The notes: a model not told the origin generated them from the letters alone. A stretch of DNA of 34,373 nucleotides from a virus (IMGVR_UViG_2713896907_000006:1-34373), one strand, 5' to 3'; positions 884-30,599 are shown, counted from the stretch's first letter. Numbers and translations: made by a program.

Positions 884-3055
884 CTATTTTAAGCTAATTG
901 TTGCATCTCTTAAATAATATTTTTTCCCATCTGCAATGCTCTTAAGTACAGCTTGAATGCGAGTCGGATGCTTTGAAATATCTATGTTTTTAGCTTTATT
1001 TCTAACCTCATCTACATCAAGTATTTCCCCGAAATAATGTTCGTCAAAAATAACATAAGGGCCATTCGTTGAATCTCTACCAGTTTCACCAATAATTTCA
1101 CACAATCTAATTATGCCATCTTCTGATAAGATGGAAGCAAGAAATTCTGATGTGAATTCAACAGAGATTCTCTTTAATTCGAAAAATATATTTGATTCTA
1201 GATGATAGTCAAAAAATATTTTTTTATTTAAAGCAATAGTAGCTGTTTCTTTGAAGGTATTCTCAAGTTCAACAATCTGATCTTTATTAATCTGTATATT
1301 ACTTGAGTTTCGTACGTTGTATAGTACTTCTGCTCCAAGTGGCGCATTCTCATATCGACCAATAATTTTTTTTATTAGCTCATATTGCTCACTACTTTTA
1401 GATATAATTTTATCAGTGAGCCAATACATCCTTCTATAAGGATCTTCTCTAATGAGACCATAGTTTTTTTCTAATGAAGATTTTAACTCTTGAGAGAAAA
1501 GAAATCTATCATAAATGCACGTTAATATATTAAAACTATCAACTTTACAACAAGCGTCTGTATAAATATTCATCATTTCGAAAAATCTTTCCTCGGCATT
1601 TTGAGATAACACATCCTCAAGGAATTTTTCTCTATTAATTTTCCCTTCGATGAAAAGAAGAATGTCATGATCGGAAATATATCCTACTGGAGTTTTAAAA
1701 TGAAGGGCAATATGAAGTCTTTGGGGGGCAGAAATTCTTCCTGCTGCATCTGAGTCAGATACATCATAAGGATAAGATTGATTGGGGCGTAGAAGAGGGA
1801 AAATATACTCTAATAGCCCCTGCATCAATGTACGTTCTCGTTGAGAAAAAATATTTAGTTTATTGCATCGTTCATGGCTATAATGCTCTATAATATCTTG
1901 ATGTTTATTCATTAACAAATTATTGATGGTTAATCTATTCCCAATGTACGCTTCAGGAGTATTCTTTATATGCTCATAAATTAAATTTGATTTGGTTGCG
2001 ATTAGAGATAAAGAAAAAAGATCTGAAGAACACACCTGACCTTTAATTTGCTCTAAAGTAAATCTCAAGTGGTTGAAAAACCTTTTCAACTCTCTTGGAT
2101 TATTAATTAATTGCTTGAAATAATTATGGTAAATCCAATCTAATCTTTCTTGATCTTTTTCAAATTTATCAGTTAAAAAACTATCACCTAGTTTTTCAAA
2201 CTCTGAATTTGCGATTTCATTCAGTCCTCTTTCTGAAATTACGGGAAGTGAAACTCGAAGTTGAACAATCTTATTAATATATTCTGACGGATTTATAATG
2301 TTATTTTTATCAAGCACAGAAATTAGGTAATTAGGATCAAATGCAAGTAAAAAAGAAGTGCCTGAGAAATTCGCAACAGCTTTGACTAACCGTAAAACTT
2401 GAAAAGCCTCAGAGGGTGTTAAACGATCAATATCATCAATTATTACAATTATAGGATGTTTTATTTTTTTTATCGCATTAGCCACTTGTTTTTTTCTATC
2501 TAAAAGATCAAGTTTTTTTAACTCAGCTATTTTTTTAGTAGCATGTCCAAAGCTTGAAAGAGATTTTTCTATGATAGATGCCCATGGTTCTGCTCCAGGG
2601 ATAAGTTTAGCAGCACTAAAGAGGCTAGAGTATGCAATTAGCTCTTTTGATACTTTTAATGCAACTTTTGATTTGTCTTTAATATTTAGTTGTGAAGAAA
2701 ACTGCAATAAAAAATCTTGAATCAAGGATTCAGGTTGGCCAGCCAACCATGGATTATATTCTATTATAATGGGTAAGGAGTCCTTTTCATTTAAGGCATT
2801 TTTTATAAGATTTATGACTGACGTTTTACCATATCCCCACTCAGCCTCTATAGATACAGTGAAACAATCATCGTCGTTATTTAATAGTAAAATATTTGCC
2901 AAATTATTTGCAAAAGTAAGTCTATTTAGTAAGTCTGGATCATTTTGACCGCCTAGTATAGGTTGGTCATTATGATATGCTCTCATTTTTAAACTCATCC
3001 ATTTAAATAAAGCAATCATAGAGATGTTGCTATTAATATTATAATATAGCCACAA
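884..3055 (-). CDS. KAP-family P-loop NTPase (about 700 aa), accessory cargo gene
   Basis: Walker A-like AEWGYGKTS, Walker B-like IIVIIDDIDRL, and the KAP-typical NPRELKRFFNHL motif, followed by roughly 370 aa of unassigned C-terminal sequence. The gene and both flanks are strongly AT-rich compared with neighbouring phage genes. True start is probably an internal ATG near 2986. Confidence 0.8.
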   Translation of the reverse strand: MWLYYNINSNISMIALFKWMSLKMRAYHNDQPILGGQNDPDLLNRLTFANNLANILLLNNDDDCFTVSIEAEWGYGKTSVINLIKNALNEKDSLPIIIEYNPWLAGQPESLIQDFLLQFSSQLNIKDKSKVALKVSKELIAYSSLFSAAKLIPGAEPWASIIEKSLSSFGHATKKIAELKKLDLLDRKKQVANAIKKIKHPIIVIIDDIDRLTPSEAFQVLRLVKAVANFSGTSFLLAFDPNYLISVLDKNNIINPSEYINKIVQLRVSLPVISERGLNEIANSEFEKLGDSFLTDKFEKDQERLDWIYHNYFKQLINNPRELKRFFNHLRFTLEQIKGQVCSSDLFSLSLIATKSNLIYEHIKNTPEAYIGNRLTINNLLMNKHQDIIEHYSHERCNKLNIFSQRERTLMQGLLEYIFPLLRPNQSYPYDVSDSDAAGRISAPQRLHIALHFKTPVGYISDHDILLFIEGKINREKFLEDVLSQNAEERFFEMMNIYTDACCKVDSFNILTCIYDRFLFSQELKSSLEKNYGLIREDPYRRMYWLTDKIISKSSEQYELIKKIIGRYENAPLGAEVLYNVRNSSNIQINKDQIVELENTFKETATIALNKKIFFDYHLESNIFFELKRISVEFTSEFLASILSEDGIIRLCEIIGETGRDSTNGPYVIFDEHYFGEILDVDEVRNKAKNIDISKHPTRIQAVLKSIADGKKYYLRDATISLK

Positions 3056-3375: not shown

Positions 3376-4485
3376 TCACTCTGTTTCTGCTATCCATTCT
3401 GGGATTTTTGCTTCAAGCTCAAGCTGCGTGGTAAAGCCGCTGTTATCAATGGTGTGCTCGGTTTTCGCAATAATCCAGTCCTGATTATCAATCTCGCTTT
3501 TAAATCCTGTTACCGTGCCATGCATTTCGGGGTAGAGTTCTGCGCGTCCACGTGCCAGCATGATGGAGAATGATGCGGCTCCGCGTTGTAGCTGCTGCCA
3601 CTTTGCCGCCGCTGCGCGTCTTGCTGCCTGCTCGTTCTGATAAGTCTTGCGTAACACAAACACATTGCCTTCCGCGCCTTCCATATAATCACCTTCACGG
3701 CTGCTGCTTTTCTCCTTTTTGGGTTTTGGCGGTTTGCGGCGTTTCACGCTGACTTTTTTCTTTTTCCCGTAATTAAGATCAAGCCAGTAGGCGCGTACAC
3801 CCGTATACGCCTCGCGGTCAGCAATGCGGAACTGATGGCGATCGCCGCTGCTGCGTGTGATGGCAAACGATGGCAATGGTTTTCCCTGCGCGTTCACGCC
3901 ACCACCTGGCATAATGAATAACAGATTACCGCTTTTTACCGTGGTGATTGCGCCCAGCATTTCCGCCATGCGTGTAAGGAAGGACATGTCGCTTTCTTCG
4001 GTCTGGTCGGCGTGGTCGATTTCGATATCCATCAGCATTTCGCTGATTTGCGGTTTCAGGCCGTATCGGTGAGCAATTGCAGACACCACGCGTTCAACGG
4101 TCACATCATGCCAGGATACTTCGCGCTTGACGTTAAATTCATCCCGAAAATCTGCGCTTCTGGCTGAAATGGTCAGTCTGTCGGGCGGTCCTTCATGAGC
4201 AATTTCATCAACAATGTAAGTGCCTTTTTCTGTCAGCGGTTCGCCTTTCCAGCCAATGAGAACCGTCAGGCGAGCTCCCCGTGGCGGCAACTGCAACTGA
4301 CCATCAGCATCATCCAGCGTGATGGTGAGCTGGTCTGCTTCAAATCCCCGGTTGTCGGTCAGTGACAGGCTCATCAGGCGTTCTGCCACACCGGATAGCG
4401 TTTTCCCCTCCGCGAGAATATCAAAATCAGGCATCTTCACGGGGTCAGTACTCTGGTTGAACAGTTGCATGGTGGTGTCAATCAT
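3376..4485 (-). CDS. D: Tail protein gpD (late control gene D family)
   Basis: Translation from MIDTTMQLFNQSTDPVKMPDFDILAEGKTLSGVAERLMSL matches P2 gpD along its length, including the lysine-rich KKKKVSVKRRKPPKPKKEK segment. Start chosen at the ATG at 4485, preceded by a GGGAGGGAG ribosome-binding site; the ORF track extends further upstream to 4617. Confidence 0.85.
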   Translation of the reverse strand: MIDTTMQLFNQSTDPVKMPDFDILAEGKTLSGVAERLMSLSLTDNRGFEADQLTITLDDADGQLQLPPRGARLTVLIGWKGEPLTEKGTYIVDEIAHEGPPDRLTISARSADFRDEFNVKREVSWHDVTVERVVSAIAHRYGLKPQISEMLMDIEIDHADQTEESDMSFLTRMAEMLGAITTVKSGNLLFIMPGGGVNAQGKPLPSFAITRSSGDRHQFRIADREAYTGVRAYWLDLNYGKKKKVSVKRRKPPKPKKEKSSSREGDYMEGAEGNVFVLRKTYQNEQAARRAAAAKWQQLQRGAASFSIMLARGRAELYPEMHGTVTGFKSEIDNQDWIIAKTEHTIDNSGFTTQLELEAKIPEWIAETE

Positions 4486-11261: not shown

Positions 11262-11828
11262 TCATGGTTGAATAGGCCAAACAGGATCAAAAATATCAAC
11301 ACGATTTAACTGTATTCGATAATTCTTCCAGGCGTTCAGTAACAATGCTTCTTCTTTCGTTGCAATCTCCAGATCTACAGCATCCAGAAGTGGCGCAATA
11401 TGTTCATTAGCCAATTGCATCAGTCTGTTTTTTGTTTCTGCCGCTTCCCGTATCCGAAACAGTTTTTCTGCTTCTGCATCTTTCACCCAGGCTGTGCCGT
11501 TCCACTTCTGAAACTCCCCTTCCGGGGATAACCAGGTGACATGTTCCGGTAGCGGTCCGAGTTCAGAAATAAATAACGCATCCCCTGATGCCACGTCATA
11601 AACCGTTTTACCCCGATGGTCTTCAACGAGATGCCACGATACATCCTCACTGTTGAAAACAGCCACAAAGCCAGCCGGAATATCTGGCGGTGCAATATCG
11701 GTACTGTTTGCAGGCAGACCTGTATGAGGTGGGATGTATGCATCACCTTCACCAATAAATTCATTAGTTCCGGCCAGCAGATTATAAATTTTTATGGTCC
11801 GTGCTTGTTCACTCATTCTGAATGCCAT
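11262..11828 (-). CDS. G: Tail fibre assembly chaperone gpG
   Basis: 188 aa; C-terminal segment [26 protein letters not shown] resembles the P2 gpG C-terminus; located directly downstream of H. Confidence 0.8.
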
Positions 11829-22272: not shown

Positions 22273-24024
22273 ATGATTCAGGACGCTTTTGTGCGCCAGC
22301 GTGCGCGACAACTTTACTGGCAGGGTTATCCGCCCGCAGAAATATCACGTCTGATGGGAATAAACCCGAACACGATTTATGCGTGGAAAAAACGCGACCA
22401 GTGGGATGAAGCGCCACCCGTGCAGCGTGTCACGCAGTCCATCGATGCGCGCCTCATCCAGCTTACTGAAAAACAGAATAAAACAGGTGGTGACTTCAAG
22501 GAAATAGACCTGCTGACCCGGCAGCTTAAAAAACTGCATGATGGCCAGCCGGATGCGACGGCCACAGGAAAGAAAGGCCGGGCGAAAAAACTTAAAAATC
22601 ATTTCACGCCGGAACAGATTGCCGCACTGCGGGAAAAAATCATCAGCAGGCTGGAGTGGCATCAGCGGGGCTGGTTTGACTCCCTGACCCTTTGCAGGGA
22701 AGCCGGGATACGTAACAGGATGATCCTGAAATCCCGACAGATTGGGGCGACCTGGTATTTTGCACAGGAAGCGCTGCTGATGGCGCTGCGTGACGATGTG
22801 GCGCAACCTTACCAGCGTAACCAGATTTTTTTGTCTGCGTCGCGTCGTCAGGCGTTCCAGTTTAAAAGCATTATTCAGAAGGCCGCGGCTGAAGTTGATG
22901 TGGAGCTGAAAGGGGGCGATAAAATCATCCTCTCCAACGGCGCAGAGCTGCATTTTCTCGGCACTTCTGCTGCGTCGGCACAGTCCTATACGGGCAATTT
23001 TTATTTTGATGAATTTTTCTGGGTCAGTCGCTTTGCTGAACTGCGCAAGGTGGCTGGCGCTATGGCAACCCTCAGCGGACTGCGGCGCACCTACTTCTCC
23101 ACGCCATCCACCGAAACGCACGAGGCATACGCCTACTGGAACGGCGACCGCTGGAACGAGAAAAAGGCCACGCATAAACGCCAGCGTTTTTCTGTGGACT
23201 GGGAAACGCTGCATAACGGGCTTATCTGCCCTGACCGGACGTGGCGGCAGATTGTCACGCTGGAAGATGTGGTTAATCACGGCTGGAAACACACCGATAT
23301 TGACGAAATTCGTGATGAAAACACCGAAGACGAGTTCCTCAATCTCTATATGTGTGAGTTTGTCCGCGAAGGGGAATCGGCATTTAACCTGAATATCCTG
23401 ATTGGCTGCGGTGTTGACGGATACGACGACTGGAAAGACTGGAAACCTTTTGCTCCCCGCCCGATGGGGAATCGTCCGGTATGGATTGGGTATGACGCAA
23501 ACGGCAGCAGTGGCAACGGCGACAGCGGCGCTGTGTCCGTGGTGGTTCCTCCGTCTGTTCCTGGTGGCCGTTTTCGAACGGTGGAGACGCGACGCGTTCA
23601 GGGGCTGGAGTTTGAAGAACAGGCCAGAGTCATTGAAGAGTTCACGTGCCGCTACAACGTGGAACACATCGGCATTGATGTGACGGGCGGGAACGGGGAG
23701 GCTGTTTATCAGATAGTGAAACGGTTTTTCCCTGCCGCTATTCCGTACACCTTCACGCTGTCATCAAAACGGTCGCTGGTACTGAAAATGCTGCAAATAA
23801 TGCGTGCCGGACGGTGGGAATACGATCGCGCCGAACGCGAGCTGGTCGCGGCCTTTAACGCCGTGCGTAAGGTGAAAACACCGGGCGGCTTTATCACTTA
23901 CGAAACGGACCGCGCGAGGGGGATCAGCCACGGCGACCTTGCGTGGGCAACCATGCTTGCTGTCATTAACGAACCAATTGGCGGCGAAGGAGAAAACGAG
24001 CGTTTCACGGTTATGGAGTTCTGA
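22273..24024 (+). CDS. P: Terminase large (ATPase) subunit gpP
   Basis: 583 aa, size and position match P2 gpP. Confidence 0.9.
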   Translation: MIQDAFVRQRARQLYWQGYPPAEISRLMGINPNTIYAWKKRDQWDEAPPVQRVTQSIDARLIQLTEKQNKTGGDFKEIDLLTRQLKKLHDGQPDATATGKKGRAKKLKNHFTPEQIAALREKIISRLEWHQRGWFDSLTLCREAGIRNRMILKSRQIGATWYFAQEALLMALRDDVAQPYQRNQIFLSASRRQAFQFKSIIQKAAAEVDVELKGGDKIILSNGAELHFLGTSAASAQSYTGNFYFDEFFWVSRFAELRKVAGAMATLSGLRRTYFSTPSTETHEAYAYWNGDRWNEKKATHKRQRFSVDWETLHNGLICPDRTWRQIVTLEDVVNHGWKHTDIDEIRDENTEDEFLNLYMCEFVREGESAFNLNILIGCGVDGYDDWKDWKPFAPRPMGNRPVWIGYDANGSSGNGDSGAVSVVVPPSVPGGRFRTVETRRVQGLEFEEQARVIEEFTCRYNVEHIGIDVTGGNGEAVYQIVKRFFPAAIPYTFTLSSKRSLVLKMLQIMRAGRWEYDRAERELVAAFNAVRKVKTPGGFITYETDRARGISHGDLAWATMLAVINEPIGGEGENERFTVMEF

Positions 24025-25070
24025 TGAGCAGAAAAAATAAAAAAGTGCGCATGAGTTCACGCATTGATCTCGCTGATGCGCTCAGGAAAGAATCGTCGCT
24101 CAGTGCATTCACATTTGACGGCCCTTATCGCCTGACCGGGCATGATTTGCTGGACAATATGTACTGTGCTGATAACGGGCGGTGGTATGAAACCCCGGTG
24201 GACTGGTACGGTCTGGCAAGAGCCGCCCGGCAAACGTCCTGGCATCAGTCTGCGCTTTACTTTAAGCGCAATGTATTGCTCGGCTGCTATATTCCGCACC
24301 CGCTGCTTTCCCGACAGGATTTCTCGGCGCTGGCGCTGGACTGGTTTGTGTTCGGTAACGCATTCCTTGAGCTTCGAAGCAATATGCTCGGCGAACCGCT
24401 TAAATTACGGCACGCCCTGGCGAAATACATGCGACGCGGAAGTGATCTTGAATCATGGTGGTATGTGCAGGATGGCAAGGATGCGTTTCAGTTTCGCCCA
24501 GGCAAAGTGTGCCACCTGATGAACCCGGATATTAACCAGGAAATCTACGGCATGCCGGAATATCTCGGTGCATTACTCTCGGCCAGTCTTTCCCATTCGG
24601 CGGACATGTTCAGAAAACTGTATTACGACAACGGATCCCACGCCGGGTGCATCATCTACATCGGTGCAGCGCAGGTAAACCGCGAAAGCATGGACTCCCT
24701 GAAAGAAACGCTACAGGGTGCGCGTGGTGGTGGTGCATTTAAAAATGTGCTCATTCATGCGCCCAACGGGGGCAAAGAGGGTGTGCAAATTTTGCCGTTC
24801 CAGCAGATCACCGCAAAGGATGAGTTCATGAATGTTAAGGCTGCATCCCGTGATGATGTGCTGGCTGCGCACCGCGTTCCACCGCAACTGATGGGGGCGA
24901 TGCCGGGCGAAAAAAGTGCGTTTGGTGATGTGGAGAAGGCCGCGCGGGTTTACGCAATTAACGAGCTGATGCCCGTCATGGAGGCCATGAAGCACATCAA
25001 TGACTGGCTGGGCGAAGAGGTGATCCGCTTTAACCCTTACGCACTGTTAGACCCCCAGCCCACATCCTGA
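24024..25070 (+). CDS. Q: Portal protein gpQ
   Basis: 348 aa, start overlapping the P stop; matches P2 gpQ in size and position. Confidence 0.9.
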   Translation: MSRKNKKVRMSSRIDLADALRKESSLSAFTFDGPYRLTGHDLLDNMYCADNGRWYETPVDWYGLARAARQTSWHQSALYFKRNVLLGCYIPHPLLSRQDFSALALDWFVFGNAFLELRSNMLGEPLKLRHALAKYMRRGSDLESWWYVQDGKDAFQFRPGKVCHLMNPDINQEIYGMPEYLGALLSASLSHSADMFRKLYYDNGSHAGCIIYIGAAQVNRESMDSLKETLQGARGGGAFKNVLIHAPNGGKEGVQILPFQQITAKDEFMNVKAASRDDVLAAHRVPPQLMGAMPGEKSAFGDVEKAARVYAINELMPVMEAMKHINDWLGEEVIRFNPYALLDPQPTS

Positions 25071-25546
25071 CGCGCTTCGCTTGTCTGCTGCTTCGCCTGG
25101 GCATAAAAAATTTATGCCCCGACTCTCCAGCTCCTGTATCAATCAGATAATTTCACGACGCCTTCCAGCTTATTGCCATCATCGACGGTCAGGCTCTTAC
25201 GCAATCCCACCGCGTTGACTGCATGTTCCTGCCGCCTCAGTGCGATTTTGGCGGCCTTATCTGTTCAAAAGCCCTTACGTCTTTTTCACACTCAGCGTGA
25301 GAAATACAGCCATTCTGTTGTGTCGCTGCGACATCGTTCAGGGAATGCTATTTACCCCCTGAAACGCGGGCTGTTCCCCCGTCACCTGCGCGCAGAAAAA
25401 ACGCGTTTTTTTGTGCATGCACGGATCCTTGACGGATCCAGCCGCCATGCGGGCCGGAAGGGCAAAAAGTCATTCAAAAAAATTGTGCAAATTTGTGCAC
25501 TATTGTGCATTGAAATAAACGCCCTGGGGGAGGGCGTTTTGCTCAT
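25071..25546. other. Non-coding region expected to contain cos (not pinpointed)
   Basis: In P2 cos lies between Q and the accessory tin/old region. This gap contains a 9-bp hairpin (25099-25119), AAAAAACGCGTTTTTT and GGATCC-TTGAC-GGATCC palindromes, three phased TTGTGCA repeats and a GC hairpin. No exact P2/186 cohesive-end sequence was recognised. Confidence 0.4.
25483..25509. repeat. Three direct TTGTGCA repeats spaced exactly 10 bp apart
   Basis: TTGTGCA begins at 25483, 25493 and 25503. Confidence 0.8.
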
Positions 25547-25810
25547 CTATTTATAGCCCTGCCCCTTACTGGCCAGCGCCCTGATGGCAGGGCGTGCCAA
25601 CACCATATTTTGGCAATGATGAATTGCCCGGCAAAATTCATCTCTACCCATTGGATGCTCAACTGGCAATGTTAAATACAGGTTCCATGCATCGCCTAAA
25701 AGTTGGGCTATCTTTTGTTCTTCAGATGTCAGCAAGCAAGCGGTATCCGTAAAATAATCATACTTTTCATGTATGTTATTTAACGGCTTTTTCTTAGTGG
25801 TATCGGTCAT
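25547..25810 (-). CDS. Hypothetical small protein (87 aa)
   Basis: ORF translationally coupled to the upstream gene; contains an HP...EF...IH..Q pattern. No confident family assignment. Confidence 0.55.
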   Translation of the reverse strand: MTDTTKKKPLNNIHEKYDYFTDTACLLTSEEQKIAQLLGDAWNLYLTLPVEHPMGRDEFCRAIHHCQNMVLARPAIRALASKGQGYK

Positions 25811-26121
25811 TGAGTCAACTTAATAGCAAATACTTTTACTGGCTCTGGTCCAAAATGTGGATGTGTTATCACCTTGATCTCATATCCCCCATATGGAACA
25901 TCAATTCTGCGGCTTAAATCGTCGCGTTTCGGATACCCCTTAGTAATAATCAATCGATCATAGCTCTTATCCAATATACGGCGAGACCAGTATGAATTAA
26001 CCAGGCGATACTCTTCCGTTTTCTCTCCGCGAATCATGGCATCGAAGTATTCACCTTTGACGGCAAGTTGCAGGTTAGCCACGGTTAACCTCCTGCGGCG
26101 GCTCTGCAGCAAAATACTCAA
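25807..26121 (-). CDS. ASCH/PUA-like domain protein (DUF3850-like)
   Basis: LAVKGEYFDAMIRGEKTEEYR resembles the N-terminal signature of ASCH/DUF3850 proteins; about 100 aa. Confidence 0.55.
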   Translation of the reverse strand: MSILLQSRRRRLTVANLQLAVKGEYFDAMIRGEKTEEYRLVNSYWSRRILDKSYDRLIITKGYPKRDDLSRRIDVPYGGYEIKVITHPHFGPEPVKVFAIKLTQ

Positions 26122-26407
26122 TACCTTTATCCCAGATGGATTTTATGGTCGTCCATGTGACTGGTACTTTAATTTCAATTCTCCCGCTCCCGTCACAGGT
26201 TTCGCAATCATCATCGCCAAAACATTCCGGGCAGTTTATAAACGTAGTTTCTGAAAACTCACCGGATAGCACACCCTTAGCGCCGTTCTCAACGGTTAGT
26301 CTCCTCGGTACCATAACCCAACCATCTGGAGTTACCGGAGAGTTGCCCGATGGCGCGTTCAACTTGGTGATTTTACGTTGTAACCATTCTTTGGTAATGG
26401 TGGACAT
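26075..26407 (-). CDS. Small zinc-finger protein with DnaJ-type CxxCxGxG motif
   Basis: Start at the ATG at 26407 preceded by AGGAG; contains CPEC...CETCDGSG. 110 aa. Confidence 0.6.
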   Translation of the reverse strand: MSTITKEWLQRKITKLNAPSGNSPVTPDGWVMVPRRLTVENGAKGVLSGEFSETTFINCPECFGDDDCETCDGSGRIEIKVPVTWTTIKSIWDKGIEYFAAEPPQEVNRG

Positions 26408-26421
26408 AGTTGCTCCTGTTT

Positions 26422-26736
26422 TCACTCCGGGAAAAACGCTTGAATATTTTTTTTCATTTGTTGCATGGTTCCTTCGCTGTTCGTTGCTGATTGTGTTGTT
26501 TTTTCTGGCTGTGCTGGCAGTAACGACATCCTGATTTCGTCTTCTGACCATTCTGCCAGCGAGTACGCCAGAGCGGGGGCTCGTTTTATGAGTGACAGTC
26601 CGGCCAAAAAGGCCGCGCGTTGTGCGCGGCTGCGTTCTGAGGCTGGCAGGCTGTCTAGGTAACTGCACGCCTCCTGCTCACTCTTGACGGCGGCTGGCTT
26701 CAGATAGAAACTTATCCGCCTGGTTGGTGTGGTCAT
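26422..26736 (-). CDS. parR: ParR-like partition adaptor (plasmid R1 ParR/StbB family)
   Basis: MTTPTRRISFYLKPAAV...LDSLPASERSRAQRAAFLAGLSL aligns by eye with R1 ParR (RRTIAFKLNP...LDSIPQGERSRLNRAALTAGLAL). Start codon overlaps the parM stop. Confidence 0.8.
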   Translation of the reverse strand: MTTPTRRISFYLKPAAVKSEQEACSYLDSLPASERSRAQRAAFLAGLSLIKRAPALAYSLAEWSEDEIRMSLLPAQPEKTTQSATNSEGTMQQMKKNIQAFFPE

Positions 26737-26740
26737 TGGT

Positions 26741-27700
26741 TTACTCCTTGTCCATTGCGTACAACCCATTAACCAGAGCAAACTGTGGCACTCCGTCCGC
26801 GATGAAAGTCGCATTAACTCCGCAGGCTTCGCGGATAGCGGGTGCCACAATCTCCGCCCCTCCACCGACAACCATCACCCGCCCGTAACCGGAAAAACCC
26901 GCCAGCGCGCGGATCACGCGTTGTTTCAGTGTTTCTTCCTTTTCACGAATCACCGCCATCAGGCTGGCGTAATGCGCGTCATTGTGGATGTGCTGGCGCA
27001 GCCAGGCTTCATCGTGGCGATGTTCGATAATAGTATTGGCGATGTGGTGACTGGTGCGCATACCGTTAGTGGCCATCACCGACAGTACGGCATCGGCCAT
27101 CAGAGAAACGCCTACGTGTGGATCGCAAAACACCTGGCTGATACCTGCCAGTTGCCCCTGAACCTTTGCCACATCCAGCGTGGTTCCGCCCAAATCCACA
27201 ATCAGCAGGGATTCAAACGGACTCATGTCAGCCAGTGCTTTAAAGCCAGCCGGAATGGATTCAGGCATAACCCGCACGTTACGGATAGTGAATGCCTCAC
27301 CGTTCTGGTACTCCACCGGGCGCATGACGTTCGCTTTTTTGCGGTTGATGTTGGCCATGTCCGGCTGTGCGTTTGTGTCGAAATATTCGCTCAGTGGCAG
27401 GGTGACAACCACATCTACTTCCTGTGGTGTGATGCCTGATTTGACCAGTGCGTGGTGAATGGCGATTACATTCACATCGCTGTACTGGTATTGCGTGTCG
27501 GTCGTCTGGACAAAGCGATCGCTGACCGGATCAAAACCATAGCGCACGCCATCAAGCATGTAGTTCGCAGGCTGCGAGCCACCGAATGGCGCAGACCATT
27601 CCGACTTGAAGCTGTTCGGGCTGATGGCGTTGCGGCGTTCGCCGTTCTCACTCCATGCCAGCTTGATGTTGGTGGAGCCGTCGTCGATACAAATTTTCAT
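26741..27700 (-). CDS. parM: ParM-like actin-type partition ATPase (plasmid R1 ParM/StbA family)
   Basis: MKICIDDGSTNIKLAW...ISPNSFKSEW...YQYSDVNVIAIHHAL...VMPESIPAGF...LLIVDLGGTTLDV...VMVVGGGAE closely parallels R1 ParM along the whole length. Confidence 0.9.
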   Translation of the reverse strand: MKICIDDGSTNIKLAWSENGERRNAISPNSFKSEWSAPFGGSQPANYMLDGVRYGFDPVSDRFVQTTDTQYQYSDVNVIAIHHALVKSGITPQEVDVVVTLPLSEYFDTNAQPDMANINRKKANVMRPVEYQNGEAFTIRNVRVMPESIPAGFKALADMSPFESLLIVDLGGTTLDVAKVQGQLAGISQVFCDPHVGVSLMADAVLSVMATNGMRTSHHIANTIIEHRHDEAWLRQHIHNDAHYASLMAVIREKEETLKQRVIRALAGFSGYGRVMVVGGGAEIVAPAIREACGVNATFIADGVPQFALVNGLYAMDKE

Positions 27701-27730
27701 GTCGATTTTCCTTATGTTGATTAATTAACC

Positions 27731-27840
27731 GTTTACGGGATTCTGAAATCCCGCTTTTGCCTGTTTTGTGCGCGCTTCATATTTCGCGGCGCGTTTTTTG
27801 CTCATTTACGGGATTTGTGAATCCCGTTTCTGTCTGTTTT
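27731..27840. repeat. Two copies of an approximately 40-bp element, each containing a CGGGATT-N4-AATCCCG hairpin followed by a T-rich tract
   Basis: Copy 1 hairpin 27736-27753, copy 2 hairpin 27809-27826; both are preceded by TTTACGGGA and followed by CTGTTTT. They straddle the gene A stop codon, just upstream of parM. Confidence 0.75.
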
Positions 27841-30599
27841 TTGTTCCCACGGGTCAGGCCACCCCGCAGCAGGTCTGCTTTGCGGTTGGCGCGTTCAGTG
27901 GTTTCACTGATTCTCTGTGCGTGCTCTGCGTCACGGATGGCGCGCAGCATGTCAGAAAGCACGGTAACGGGGGTTTTTATGGTGCTCTGGTCCTGCTGAA
28001 GTGTGGATGCCAGACGTGCGGCGGCTTCGGGGTCTGATGCCCCCAGTTGTTCCAGATAGCTGGCGACCGGGTTATGGCGGATCTCTGTGCTGCTTACGCC
28101 GTGATTACGGCTCAGGCGCTGCCAGAGCTGCGTGATTCGGCTGTCCGGGCGGGTATCCGGTTTGCGTACAATTTCAAATCCCTGCGGTGCAATGATGCTG
28201 CCGTCAACGTACAGACTGCCGCCCCGTAACAGGTGCTGCATCTGCTGTTCACCGATATGCAGGCCGAGAGATTCAGCAGACTCCCGCCATTCTTTAGCGA
28301 GTAACTCGTGGTTATCAGGCAAAGGCTGTGGCTGTTTGCGGCTCTGTGTCCAGTTCTGCATTTCATCACTGCTGTTTTTTGCCTGTTTGTCACGCAGCGA
28401 ACGCATCAGCGCCCGGCGTTCGTGCCGTTTCAGTGAGCGCATCCATTCATCCACATCAACGCCGTCAGGAAGCTGCGGCCACGGTGCTGGCCGTTCTTCC
28501 GGCTGTTCTGTCCCGTTGTTGTCCGTTTCCTGTACACGGGGACAGTTATTGCCACGAGTCCAAGGGGCGGCAGGGCCGCCCTGAAGGTCAAAACTATTTT
28601 CGTTGGCGCTGTCTTCCGCTTCCGGTTTACGTCTTACCAGCTTCCAGTTATCCGGGTGCGTGCACACGCGGGAAGATTCCCCGATTTGTGGCGACCAGAT
28701 CCCGTAAATCTGTACGCTTTGCTCGCCGTAATCGTTCAGCTCTTCTGCGAGGTCGTAGGCGGTGCGAATCAGGTAATCCTTGCGTGGAACAAGTACGCCA
28801 CCCTGTTTCTCAATGTAGGTGGCAAAACACCCGGCATCAGCGGCAGCAAGTACCGCATCCATTGCGTCATTTTCCAGACGTTGTGGACCTTCCGGGTTGC
28901 GGGCCATCTGACTGGCAAGGCGGCGGAGTTCACGCCATACCTGACGGGAGGGGATACCAAAGAACTGGAACTGGCGGACGCGGTGAAGGCGCGCCCAGCC
29001 GATGGCGCGTTCCACGCTCTCGGCCATTGATTTTCCGGTTTCGTGATCAACGCGTGGCTTGCCTGTTTTCGGGTCAATGCCATCCACGGCGCGGCTGTCC
29101 AGGTTCTTTCCGATGTAGGTGGCGATGTAGCTGGTCGGCGTACCTTTTGAACCGTCGACGTACTCTGCCTTAAAGCGCGGAGTTATGTCATTGCCCAGCT
29201 CGTGGCGGTCTTCGCGAATGGCAATATCACGGGTGATGTCCACGATGCTGTCGATTTCTTCAGGATGTGCAAAGACCATCATGTGCCAGTGCACGGTGCC
29301 GTCATGGTGTGGCTCCACCGTGCGGATGCCATACCAGCGCAGGCCGTCGCGATTCAGTTTTTTGCGGACCGCCTTAAAAAAAGTGTTAACCAGGTAATCA
29401 CTGGAATCGCGCATGGTGGCGCCGTTCCATTTGGGATTCGGATGACCGTTCTCTGTTGTAGCGTGGTATTTTGACGGGCAGGTGACAGTCAGAAACACCG
29501 CTTTGTCGCCACGGGCTTCGGCCAGAAGTTCCAGTCCCTTCATGGTGGCCATCATTTCTGCCTTACGGTGGACCGGGTTACTTACTCCCGCGTAATACAC
29601 CGTCTCGAGATCAATCGTGAACCCGTCTTCATTTTCCAGCATGAAACTTTTCAGGAAATCGCGTGTTTTCTCGCGCTGTGCGCGAAATTCACTTAATGCG
29701 TCCTGACTCAGATAGGGTGATGTTTTTCTGGAAACCAGACAGGCAGCGCGGAGTTGTTCCTCTCTCCATTCGCAACGTAAAAGCCACAGTTTGCGTTTCC
29801 ACCAGTCCGCACAGGTCAGGCGGAGGATTGCACCCGGCAGCAGTTCCGTGTCCGGTTCGTTCTTCCGGTCTTTGTCTGTTGTCAGTGCGTCATAATGCGG
29901 CGGCACTGTGTGCAGATGTAACGCCATGCGGGCCAGCATCTGATACGCCTTCAGCGTTATATCCATGGTCAGCTCGCCGTCGGTCGCGCCACAGCCATCG
30001 CAGAGTTTTTCGAAGGTGCTGCTGAACATCGCCGCTGTCATGACGGCCAGCGTCTGTATCTGGTGCTTGTTGAGCTGTGGCAGGTACAGCAAATCGTCCA
30101 GACGTTCACGTCCGGCAAGGGAGCGATAACCCGGAGTCAGCCAGCGACGGTCGGTGCGGGCCAGACGTTCGAATATTTTGCGCAGGGTTCCGCGCGCATA
30201 GCGTTCCGCCTGCCAGCTCTTTTTGCCTTTCTGGCGGTCAGATTCCTGTTTTTTGCGCAGGAAAGAGAGATGGCGGATAAGCGGATCACGCAGATAGGAC
30301 GGCAGCAGACGCAGTGCGGCAATTGCTTCATCCACCGCACCTCGTGCCTGCTTTCTGGCTTCTCTTGCCAGTGTGATGGCTTTGTCCTGTTTTTCCTGTG
30401 CGTCCAGGCTTTTATTAATCAGATTGCCCAGCGGTGCAGCGGAGAACGCCGCATCAGCCATTTCCTGGCGGCGCTCGTTCTCTGCCCGGTAGGCATCCAG
30501 CCAGGAAGAAAGAAGGGAGGGGCGGACAGGCTCCCCCGTTCCCTCGCGACCGACTGCACAGCGTGGTTGTTGCCAGTCTCTGATGTACTCCGTTGTCAC
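27777..30599 (-). CDS. A: Replication initiation endonuclease gpA (rolling-circle HUH nickase family)
   Basis: Contains HHDGTVHWHMMVF (HUH-type motif); largest early-region ORF, in the position of P2 gene A. At 940 aa it is longer than the P2 and 186 A proteins as I recall them. Confidence 0.85.
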   Translation of the reverse strand: MTTEYIRDWQQPRCAVGREGTGEPVRPSLLSSWLDAYRAENERRQEMADAAFSAAPLGNLINKSLDAQEKQDKAITLAREARKQARGAVDEAIAALRLLPSYLRDPLIRHLSFLRKKQESDRQKGKKSWQAERYARGTLRKIFERLARTDRRWLTPGYRSLAGRERLDDLLYLPQLNKHQIQTLAVMTAAMFSSTFEKLCDGCGATDGELTMDITLKAYQMLARMALHLHTVPPHYDALTTDKDRKNEPDTELLPGAILRLTCADWWKRKLWLLRCEWREEQLRAACLVSRKTSPYLSQDALSEFRAQREKTRDFLKSFMLENEDGFTIDLETVYYAGVSNPVHRKAEMMATMKGLELLAEARGDKAVFLTVTCPSKYHATTENGHPNPKWNGATMRDSSDYLVNTFFKAVRKKLNRDGLRWYGIRTVEPHHDGTVHWHMMVFAHPEEIDSIVDITRDIAIREDRHELGNDITPRFKAEYVDGSKGTPTSYIATYIGKNLDSRAVDGIDPKTGKPRVDHETGKSMAESVERAIGWARLHRVRQFQFFGIPSRQVWRELRRLASQMARNPEGPQRLENDAMDAVLAAADAGCFATYIEKQGGVLVPRKDYLIRTAYDLAEELNDYGEQSVQIYGIWSPQIGESSRVCTHPDNWKLVRRKPEAEDSANENSFDLQGGPAAPWTRGNNCPRVQETDNNGTEQPEERPAPWPQLPDGVDVDEWMRSLKRHERRALMRSLRDKQAKNSSDEMQNWTQSRKQPQPLPDNHELLAKEWRESAESLGLHIGEQQMQHLLRGGSLYVDGSIIAPQGFEIVRKPDTRPDSRITQLWQRLSRNHGVSSTEIRHNPVASYLEQLGASDPEAAARLASTLQQDQSTIKTPVTVLSDMLRAIRDAEHAQRISETTERANRKADLLRGGLTRGNKKQTETGFTNPVNEQKTRREI

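Follow-up and report, generated by a model that had tools for sequence, protein, structure and literature searches.

Three small, tightly packed genes lie between the partition gene parR and the cos region of a P2-family prophage, and the question they raise is whether they form a dedicated system or are independent passengers of a variable site. The window, i.e. the whole 34,373-nucleotide stretch of DNA analysed (IMGVR_UViG_2713896907_000006:1-34373), is a P2-family prophage of the P88-like type (genus Xuanwuvirus) and, the cargo excepted, its DNA around the three genes gives 94-95% matches to phage P88, to Citrobacter phage phiSM and to several prophages of E. coli. The original prediction had described a DnaJ-type zinc finger, an ASCH/DUF3850-like protein and a further small protein, and had suggested that they could make up a defence, anti-defence or regulatory unit. 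We consider it likely that the trio is a mosaic of independently shuffled accessory cargo in the gpA-to-portal hotspot, and not a dedicated three-gene system. The features on which the argument draws are the following.

24024-25070, plus strand: portal gene gpQ, 348 aa (Phage_portal in locus L010; annotated as portal protein in P88)
25517-25539, no strand assigned: 9-bp perfect hairpin, AAACGCCCT/AGGGCGTTT (inverted repeat I4), 8 nt past the last stop codon
25547-25810, minus strand: 87-aa gene, overlapping the ASCH stop by 4 nt (ATGA)
25807-26082, minus strand: ASCH gene, 91 aa, GTG start, Shine-Dalgarno sequence AGGAGG
26075-26082, minus strand: 8-nt ZnF/ASCH overlap, GTGGCTAA, with the upstream stop within ASCH codons 2-3
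26075-26407, minus strand: zinc-finger (ZnF) gene, 110 aa, ATG start, Shine-Dalgarno sequence AGGAG
26078-26362, minus strand: zinc-knuckle cassette, ZnF residues 16-110, CPECFGDDDCETCDGSG, delimited by homology to lambdoid C-termini
26363-26421, minus strand: ZnF ribosome-binding site (AGGAG) and first 15 codons, MSTITKEWLQRKITK, delimited by DNA alignment with STEC316 and lambdoid homologues
26422-26736, minus strand: parR, 104 aa (Pfam Plasmid_stab_B, E=3.7e-24; also 104 aa in the L010 gene call)
26741-27700, minus strand: parM, 319 aa (Pfam StbA_N, E=3.8e-82; ParM C-terminal domain, E=1.3e-68)
27777-30599, minus strand: gpA replication endonuclease, 940 aa (Phage_GPA in the identical locus L010; relatives annotated as replication endonuclease)

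Along the minus strand, gpA is followed by parM, parR, the three small ORFs, the hairpin and the cos-proximal non-coding region; the cargo occupies the 3' end of the parMR operon, with parR as its upstream boundary. The hotspot is bounded by gpA on one side and gpQ on the other, and the cos region lies between gpQ and the 87-aa gene; a search of the window for the P2 cos sequence with up to 3 mismatches gave no match. Judging from the layout, the hairpin at 25517-25539 is the probable end of the transcript. A promoter scan of 25000-28000 returned 3 sites where 3.0 are expected, i.e. the chance level, and scans of the trio region for Rfam families and tRNAs were negative.

This site is equivalent to the Orf91/tin/old interval of P2, in which those three genes occupy the stretch from A to cos and Orf91, a member of the ASCH superfamily (DUF3850), directly follows A. 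Rousset et al. (2022, PMC9122126) defined the gpA-gpQ interval as a hotspot whose cargo varies and is often defensive, and noted a plasmid-partition system in it in about a quarter of P2-like phages. Both flanks, gpA and gpQ, are present in the window, and the content varies among close relatives, as seen from what follows parR in each of them.

P88: a ClpX-type zinc-finger gene and a 112-aa gene
vB_EcoM-569R5: unrelated genes on the opposite strand
phiSM: a membrane protein
Many E. coli prophages: a ClpX-type finger, a 135-aa protein, or both
STEC316: a 95-aa protein, an Rrf2 regulator and an ogr/Delta gene
TUM1880: seven genes, the last of which are the same ASCH and 87-aa genes as in the window

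The placement of the trio as accessory genes at a P2 tin/old-type locus is borne out by these differences between parR and cos. So is its separation from the partition system, given that most P88-like phages have parMR without the trio genes.

The three ORFs lie on the minus strand between 25547 and 26407, exactly as had been predicted, and the layout is that of translationally coupled genes: overlaps of 8 and 4 nt join them to each other, and the 14-nt gap between the parR stop and the ZnF ATG contains an AGGAG Shine-Dalgarno sequence. The ASCH start is most likely the GTG at 26082, preceded by AGGAGG, rather than the TTG at 26121. Both a 104-aa ASCH reading from that TTG and a 197-aa ZnF reading from a GTG at 26668 were rejected in favour of the shorter, Shine-Dalgarno-preceded forms; independent gene calls on 14 public contigs likewise give products of 110, 91 and 87 aa. 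Comparison with homologues gives a dN/dS of 0.09-0.27 for each of the three, which indicates purifying selection and hence that the families are real coding sequences. In the window all three ORFs are intact, with plausible starts and tight coupling, and they are identical on 9-14 contigs.

A functional unit of three genes might be expected to travel as one, and this is where the original prediction does not hold. The exact ZnF protein occurs on 14 contigs, all in an identical P88-like context that represents one lineage. Outside it, searches at 80% coverage of the three-gene stretch did not find the trio among complete genomes of E. coli (5,426), phage records (50,697) or plasmids (72,556), and it was equally missing from 160 IMG/VR loci and from 25 loci of species-representative genomes. 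Pairs are a different matter. Adjacency of ZnF and ASCH recurs, in 14 of the E. coli genomes and in 13 of the 79 usable IMG/VR loci anchored on the cassette, where ASCH lies immediately downstream; the ASCH and 87-aa genes are paired in a single E. coli genome, and the 87-aa gene is found at 0/79 of the cassette-anchored loci. When usable loci are anchored on ASCH, the cassette stands upstream in 2 of 77 and a DUF551-type gene in 26 of these 77, and the 87-aa gene stands downstream in 3 of 80, all of the TUM1880 type without the cassette. Among the 25 species-representative ASCH loci, one has the cassette nearby and none the 87-aa gene.

The commoner home of these genes is the int-xis-proximal end of the lambdoid leftward early operon, in the company of int, xis, cIII, kil, an Erf-type recombinase and anti-RecBCD genes. 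The leftward early operon of lambda is repressed in the lysogen and expressed in lytic growth; a prophage-encoded defence role is therefore unlikely in the lambdoid home. PADLOC-DB v2 yielded no defence model for the three proteins (in the ZnF protein the only hit, PDC-M01B, had E=0.0075 and covered 25 residues of the Cys motif, and the other two gave no hit), Pfam and NCBIfam scans gave nothing above threshold, and neither a nuclease nor an ATPase nor another effector domain was found in the trio.

The breakpoints, mapped by blastn and alignment, provide a view of how the locus was put together. Homology to typical P88-like phages stops at about 25509-25546 and resumes at 26591; the intervening 3' third of parR (26422-26590) is unlike most P88-like parR genes, and STEC316-type relatives match 26358-26640 at 83%. 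The Shine-Dalgarno sequence and first 14 codons of the ZnF gene (MSTITKEWLQRKIT) come from the resident 95-aa gene of STEC316-type P88-like phages, the STEC316 protein starting MSTITKEWLQRKITEF. At about 26363-26367 the parentage switches in frame, between ATCAC and CAAGTTGAAC, with a few bases of microhomology, and beyond this junction the ORF is 88-96% identical to the last 95 residues of lambdoid proteins that are 218-273 aa long. At the other end, the junction between the ASCH and 87-aa genes is identical in TUM1880 (98% over 536 bp), in which a DUF551 gene precedes ASCH, in place of the zinc cassette found in the window. This identity indicates that the joining of ASCH to the 87-aa gene arose once and that the upstream gene was exchanged later; the likely crossover site is the conserved ...PPQEVNRG* tail, within which lie both the ribosome-binding site and the start of ASCH.

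A similar history is found for the 87-aa gene. From codon 8 to codon 87 it shares 92-96% identity with the C-terminal part of a 135-aa P88-like protein, which is the last gene before cos in many P88-like prophages. In place of the 54-residue N-terminal part of this parent it has seven codons, MTDTTKK, and it keeps the C-terminal 79 residues; the junction falls at about 25787-25790 (DNA AAAAAGCCGTTAAATAAC; 92% against the 135-aa proteins of L007 and L008). Both flanking ORFs derive from parents with an N-terminal module of the phrog_660 kind (M(S/T)TITKE...IALASLEAEP), and hence they are C-terminal heads from which a shared N-terminal handle is missing. By alignment, both ORFs are identified as chimeric, N-terminally truncated derivatives of larger modular proteins, and the same comparisons point firmly to an assembly by recombination between P88-like and lambdoid/P22-like gene pools.

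The ZnF protein, which matches phrog_60, owes its character to the cassette CPECFGDDDCETCDGSG, a CxxCxG...CxxCxGxG motif whose four cysteines are invariant in 142 cluster representatives. An exhaustive search gave 1,324 clusters at 50% identity that carry the cassette, 254 of them at E<=1e-30. In these it is almost always C-terminal and 65-90% identical, while the remainder of the protein differs; the closest relatives, at 88-96%, are the C-termini of 218- and 273-aa lambdoid proteins. Pfam names an N-terminal partner in 24 of the 142 representatives only: a dATP/dGTP pyrophosphohydrolase (DUF550) in 9, DUF551 in 7, Ead_Ea22 in 6, and DUF3850 and Lar in 1 each. Between the cassette and its partners stands a conserved linker, GNSPVTPDGW, which also precedes the DUF551 domain of 933W L0065; together with the PPQEVNRG* tail on the other side, it may serve as a recombination joint. 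The zinc cassette and the core of the 87-aa protein appear to be alternative C-terminal heads of one modular class of phage proteins. The longer cassette proteins lie in the leftward early operon of lambdoid/P22-like prophages, after cIII, kil, recombinase, SSB and anti-RecBCD genes, and most cassette loci have other genes downstream, e.g. DUF4752. Standalone short forms also exist (P0152, 101 aa; P0228, 92 aa), and P0152 is followed by an ASCH-sized gene with an 8-nt overlap.

Of the zinc finger originally predicted, the four-cysteine CxxCxG motif is real; the assignment to a DnaJ-type domain is not, as PF00684 (the DnaJ Cys-rich domain) gives no hit in the protein. The Anti-TRAP Pfam model scores 14.3 bits against a cut-off of 32, and the Ead_Ea22 region (PF13935) also gives no hit. 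An AF2 model of the protein has a pLDDT of 66 overall, with about 80 in the core and values <50 for residues 1-23; a Foldseek search of the PDB with this model returned noise only (E>1) and no fold match.

The 87-aa protein has a core of roughly 65 residues that matches phrog_13916. The "DNA ligase" label of that family is not credible, since the profile covers 67 positions and contains no ligase motif, and a sequence profile of the 87-aa family matched no solved structure. Standalone homologues of the core, 76-86 aa long, are found in Yersinia, Hafnia, Enterobacter and Pectobacterium. One HK97-like prophage of Yersinia has the core in the stretch from the lysis genes to terS, following an HNH gene. 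In P2-like prophages of Enterobacter kobei and Pectobacterium it closes, or nearly closes, the gpA-gpQ interval and shares 8 nt with the end of a gene for a Dam-like D12 methyltransferase.

The ASCH gene stands apart, as it is the sole intact, autonomous member of the trio. Its product matches phrog_625 (E=4.7e-44), is 82% identical to 933W L0064 and has a small PUA-like beta-barrel fold. The ASCH superfamily has a conserved GxKxxExR octapeptide, as Iyer et al. reportedly described in 2006; here it reads G19-E-K21-T-E-E24-Y-R26, and G19, K21, E24 and R26 are invariant among 22 sequences from several phyla. The invariant residues of the family are Y12, F13, G19, K21, E24, R26, L27 and W32, and G49-Y-P and H74-x-H76-F-G are nearly so; sequences from Achromobacter, Paraburkholderia, a Cetobacterium MAG and a planctomycete MAG are still 50-60% identical. 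The Pfam ASCH model (PF04266) scores 14.0 bits, below its cut-off of 21.2 (E=0.085, residues 19-41 only), and the family profile matched no chain of the PDB. The ASCH assignment is thus supported by fold and motif, below the Pfam threshold. The ASCH/PUA-like part of the predicted identity stands; the DUF3850 part is to be dropped, with no PF12961 hit at E<=1. An hhalign comparison with P2 Orf91 gave a probability of about 6% (5.9%) over 24 columns that cover the motif only, and by sequence the protein belongs to another ASCH family than Orf91/DUF3850.

The Lys/Glu/Arg octapeptide and the His-x-His element suggest a small nucleic-acid- or nucleotide-binding protein that could also be hydrolytic. 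The N4-acetylcytidine amidohydrolases of the YqfB type use Lys21, Thr24 and Glu74 as catalytic residues (PMC9599836). In a comparison by motif register alone, with no residue-level structural superposition, the window protein has Glu at position 24 and lacks the Thr nucleophile, which makes this chemistry unlikely. The start of the gene is equally characteristic, with a geometry, (A/G)TGGCT(A/G)A, that contains the stop of the upstream gene and is found behind unrelated upstream proteins from Escherichia to Achromobacter and Pigmentiphaga. Because the overlap is kept with unrelated proteins, the coupling, as read from this geometry, looks like a property of the ASCH gene and not of a partnership. 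In distant taxa the nameable neighbours are Lar and integrases.

These results show that the trio was assembled by at least three short-homology recombinations between cos-proximal genes of P88-like phages and genes of the int-xis-proximal "ea" region of lambdoid/P22-like phages. The flanking ORFs are heads without a handle, i.e. C-terminal cassettes of one modular class that have lost the helical N-terminal module of the phrog_660 type; they may still act as free domains. All three genes probably share one transcript, either as the last part of the parMR operon or through read-through that starts in gpA, and this transcript would end at the hairpin before cos. The ASCH protein would be made by termination-reinitiation coupling to whichever gene lies upstream, a mode suggested by the observed overlap. 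The truncated ZnF and 87-aa copies may be fully functional, because standalone short forms of both domains exist elsewhere.

One could also regard the ZnF and 87-aa ORFs as recombination debris whose frames happen to be still open, with ASCH as the only working gene. Both lack the N-terminal module of their parents, the first 23 residues of the ZnF protein are modelled with a pLDDT <50, and both are rare forms, on 9 (ZnF) and 28 (87-aa) contigs compared with at least 1,000 for the 135-aa parent. Yet their junctions are in frame and come with usable start codons and coupling signals, and other phages maintain both domains as standalone proteins (P0257 is listed in 161 index blocks); the copies are too recent for decay to show either way. 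We regard this as possible but unlikely. A pairing of the ZnF cassette with ASCH, in which a zinc-domain adaptor would serve an RNA- or nucleotide-acting enzyme in host takeover or counter-defence and the 87-aa protein would be a passenger, draws on the adjacency described above and on its reproduction, with the same 8-nt overlap, in the lambdoid prophages L002 and L051, as well as on the two cassette proteins with a DUF3850 (ASCH-like) and a Lar N-terminus. We find such a module doubtful, with a low probability: the cassette precedes ASCH in only 2/77 viral and 1/25 species loci, DUF551-type, Lar-type and unrelated proteins are commoner partners of ASCH, genes such as DUF4752 follow the cassette in most loci, and the overlap belongs to the ASCH gene itself and not to the pair. 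A broader and more speculative version, which we hold to be improbable, is that the phrog_625 ASCH protein is a widespread phage enzyme acting on host RNA or a modified nucleotide in early infection, with the zinc cassette and perhaps the 87-aa domain as interchangeable directing or regulating partners. If this were true, the trio would represent a modular device for host takeover or counter-defence that has moved into a P2-type hotspot and is maybe expressed from the prophage.

That the three genes together constitute a new prophage-encoded defence or anti-defence system, as had first been suggested, is very improbable. The site is the old/tin defence hotspot of P2 and the genes are tightly coupled, but they do not co-occur beyond one lineage, PADLOC finds no match, the trio lacks any nuclease, ATPase or other effector domain and two of the three genes are truncated chimeras; moreover, the lambdoid homologues lie in a leftward early operon that, from lambda biology, serves the lytic phase and not the lysogen. 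We give even less weight to a role of the ASCH protein as an accessory factor of the ParMR partition system, which would be extremely surprising. The gene does share the operon of parMR, and a survey describes fusions of a ParB-CTPase fold to DUF3850 (ASCH-like) that are consistently located beside parA in prophages (PMC12704722). Nevertheless, nearly all P88-like phages carry parMR without ASCH, nearly all phrog_625-type ASCH genes reside in lambdoid early regions without partition genes, and the ASCH family found here differs from DUF3850.

Independently shuffled cargo remains our preferred reading of the locus. It implies that the content of the P2 gpA-gpQ hotspot is not always a system, in this case being fragments of the lambdoid early accessory pool that were taken up there, and it avoids listing the trio as a candidate defence system on position alone. 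With its unusual conservation across phyla and its built-in coupling overlap, the ASCH protein is the one of the three that most merits biochemical study.

Like the DnaJ Cys-rich domain and Anti-TRAP, the ZnF protein has two adjacent CxxCxG(xG) motifs with four invariant cysteines, and some homologues of the cassette bear the NCBI name "molecular chaperone DnaJ". The DnaJ domain, however, has four repeats and two zinc sites, whereas the window protein has two copies of the motif only (CPECFGDD and CETCDGSG), one predicted zinc site and no J domain. The architecture of cassette proteins is that of Ea22 and its Ead_Ea22-like relatives, in which the N-terminus varies, a helical part oligomerises and the C-terminal domain (CTD) can be swapped; homologues of the cassette form the CTD of proteins with Ead_Ea22 coiled-coil regions. 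Ea22 follows the same modular logic, and in 933W the Ea22 CTD has been split off as a separate gene, L0065 (PMC8614690; PMC10834534). The window protein differs in having neither the Ead_Ea22 region nor the N-terminal module, and the CTD of lambda Ea22 is reported to be a zinc-free alpha-beta dimer unlike the cassette (PMC10834534). The pro-lysogenic phenotype is that of Ea22 itself.

For the ASCH gene, the closest counterpart is 933W L0064 (phrog_625), from the lambdoid exo-xis/P22 ea region. The two agree in length, in the GTG/ATG start and in the 8-nt overlap with an upstream ...PPQEVNRG* tail; they differ at the C-terminus (KVNI.. in the phrog_625 family, KLTQ in the window) and in place, the window copy lying behind parMR in a P2-family phage and not before xis-int. 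Finally, the locus resembles the gpA-gpQ (old/tin) cargo of P2-like phages in its site between gpA and gpQ by cos, in the presence of ParM/ParR and in an ASCH-superfamily gene within the interval, as in P2 itself with Orf91. It differs from that cargo in being without a recognised defence protein and in the origin of its genes, which come from the lambdoid early-region pool.

The ASCH gene of the trio (25807-26082) opens with an (A/G)TGGCT(A/G)A motif that includes the stop codon of the gene upstream, at 26075-26082 in the window and around position 4001 in the comparison loci L021-L038. This start/stop geometry is found in both Enterobacterales and Betaproteobacteria, and the proteins encoded upstream in these loci are unrelated. 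The 8-nt overlap is a coupling overlap built into the ASCH gene. A standalone homologue of the 87-aa protein shares 8 nt with the end of a gene for a Dam-like D12 N6-adenine methyltransferase, within the gpA-gpQ interval of P2-like prophages from Enterobacter kobei and Pectobacterium, and a functional tie of this homologue to DNA methylation is possible. The regions concerned are:

L047, 3313-4243: methyltransferase/87-aa-homologue overlap region
L048, 3328-4261: methyltransferase/87-aa-homologue overlap region

Further features of the window lie within parR, next to the hairpin that follows the 87-aa gene, in a tail-fibre assembly gene and at the other prophage end:

26612-26630, minus strand: terminator-like hairpin within the parR coding sequence, with a stem of 7 G-C pairs and CTTTTTGG after it
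25479-25512: TTGTGCA repeated in triplicate at a spacing of ~10-11 bp (AAAATTGTGCAAATTTGTGCACTATTGTGCATTG), directly before the hairpin, in conserved cos-proximal backbone
11287-11485, minus strand: full-length Rfam match to IS009 (150.6 bits, E=1.7e-35)
884-3055, minus strand: KAP-family P-loop NTPase of 723 aa (Pfam E=3.3e-47)

The parR-internal hairpin could attenuate transcription into the cargo. In the 3' third of parR (26422-26590), the DNA has no homology to parR of most P88-like phages and matches a minority lineage, the STEC316 type, at an identity of only 83%; ParR may have acquired a different C-terminus along with the cargo. The TTGTGCA triplet may be a protein-binding site, and the P2 cos sequence was not found in the window. 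The IS009 match sits within the tail-fibre assembly gene (11262-11828).

The gpD tail gene adjoins the KAP-family NTPase gene, at the prophage end opposite the trio. This NTPase may be the real defence candidate of the element, because KAP NTPases turn up repeatedly in the cargo lists compiled for P2 hotspots (PMC9122126, supplement).

Loci bearing on other cargo of the parR-portal interval are:

L020 (phage 933W), 1762-2073: gene L0063
L001, 8060-8392: ClpX-C4-type zinc-finger gene
L004, 2398-2730: ClpX-C4-type zinc-finger gene
L009, 3066-3751: Rrf2-family regulator and ogr/Delta zinc-finger gene of STEC316-type P88-like prophages

The ClpX-C4-type gene located 3' of parR in P88 and many relatives is similar to 933W L0063 on an unscored visual comparison of their Cys motifs. 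In 933W, L0063 adjoins the ASCH gene, before xis. Given this resemblance, the lambdoid int-proximal gene pool may be the source of further cargo in the gpA-gpQ hotspot as well.
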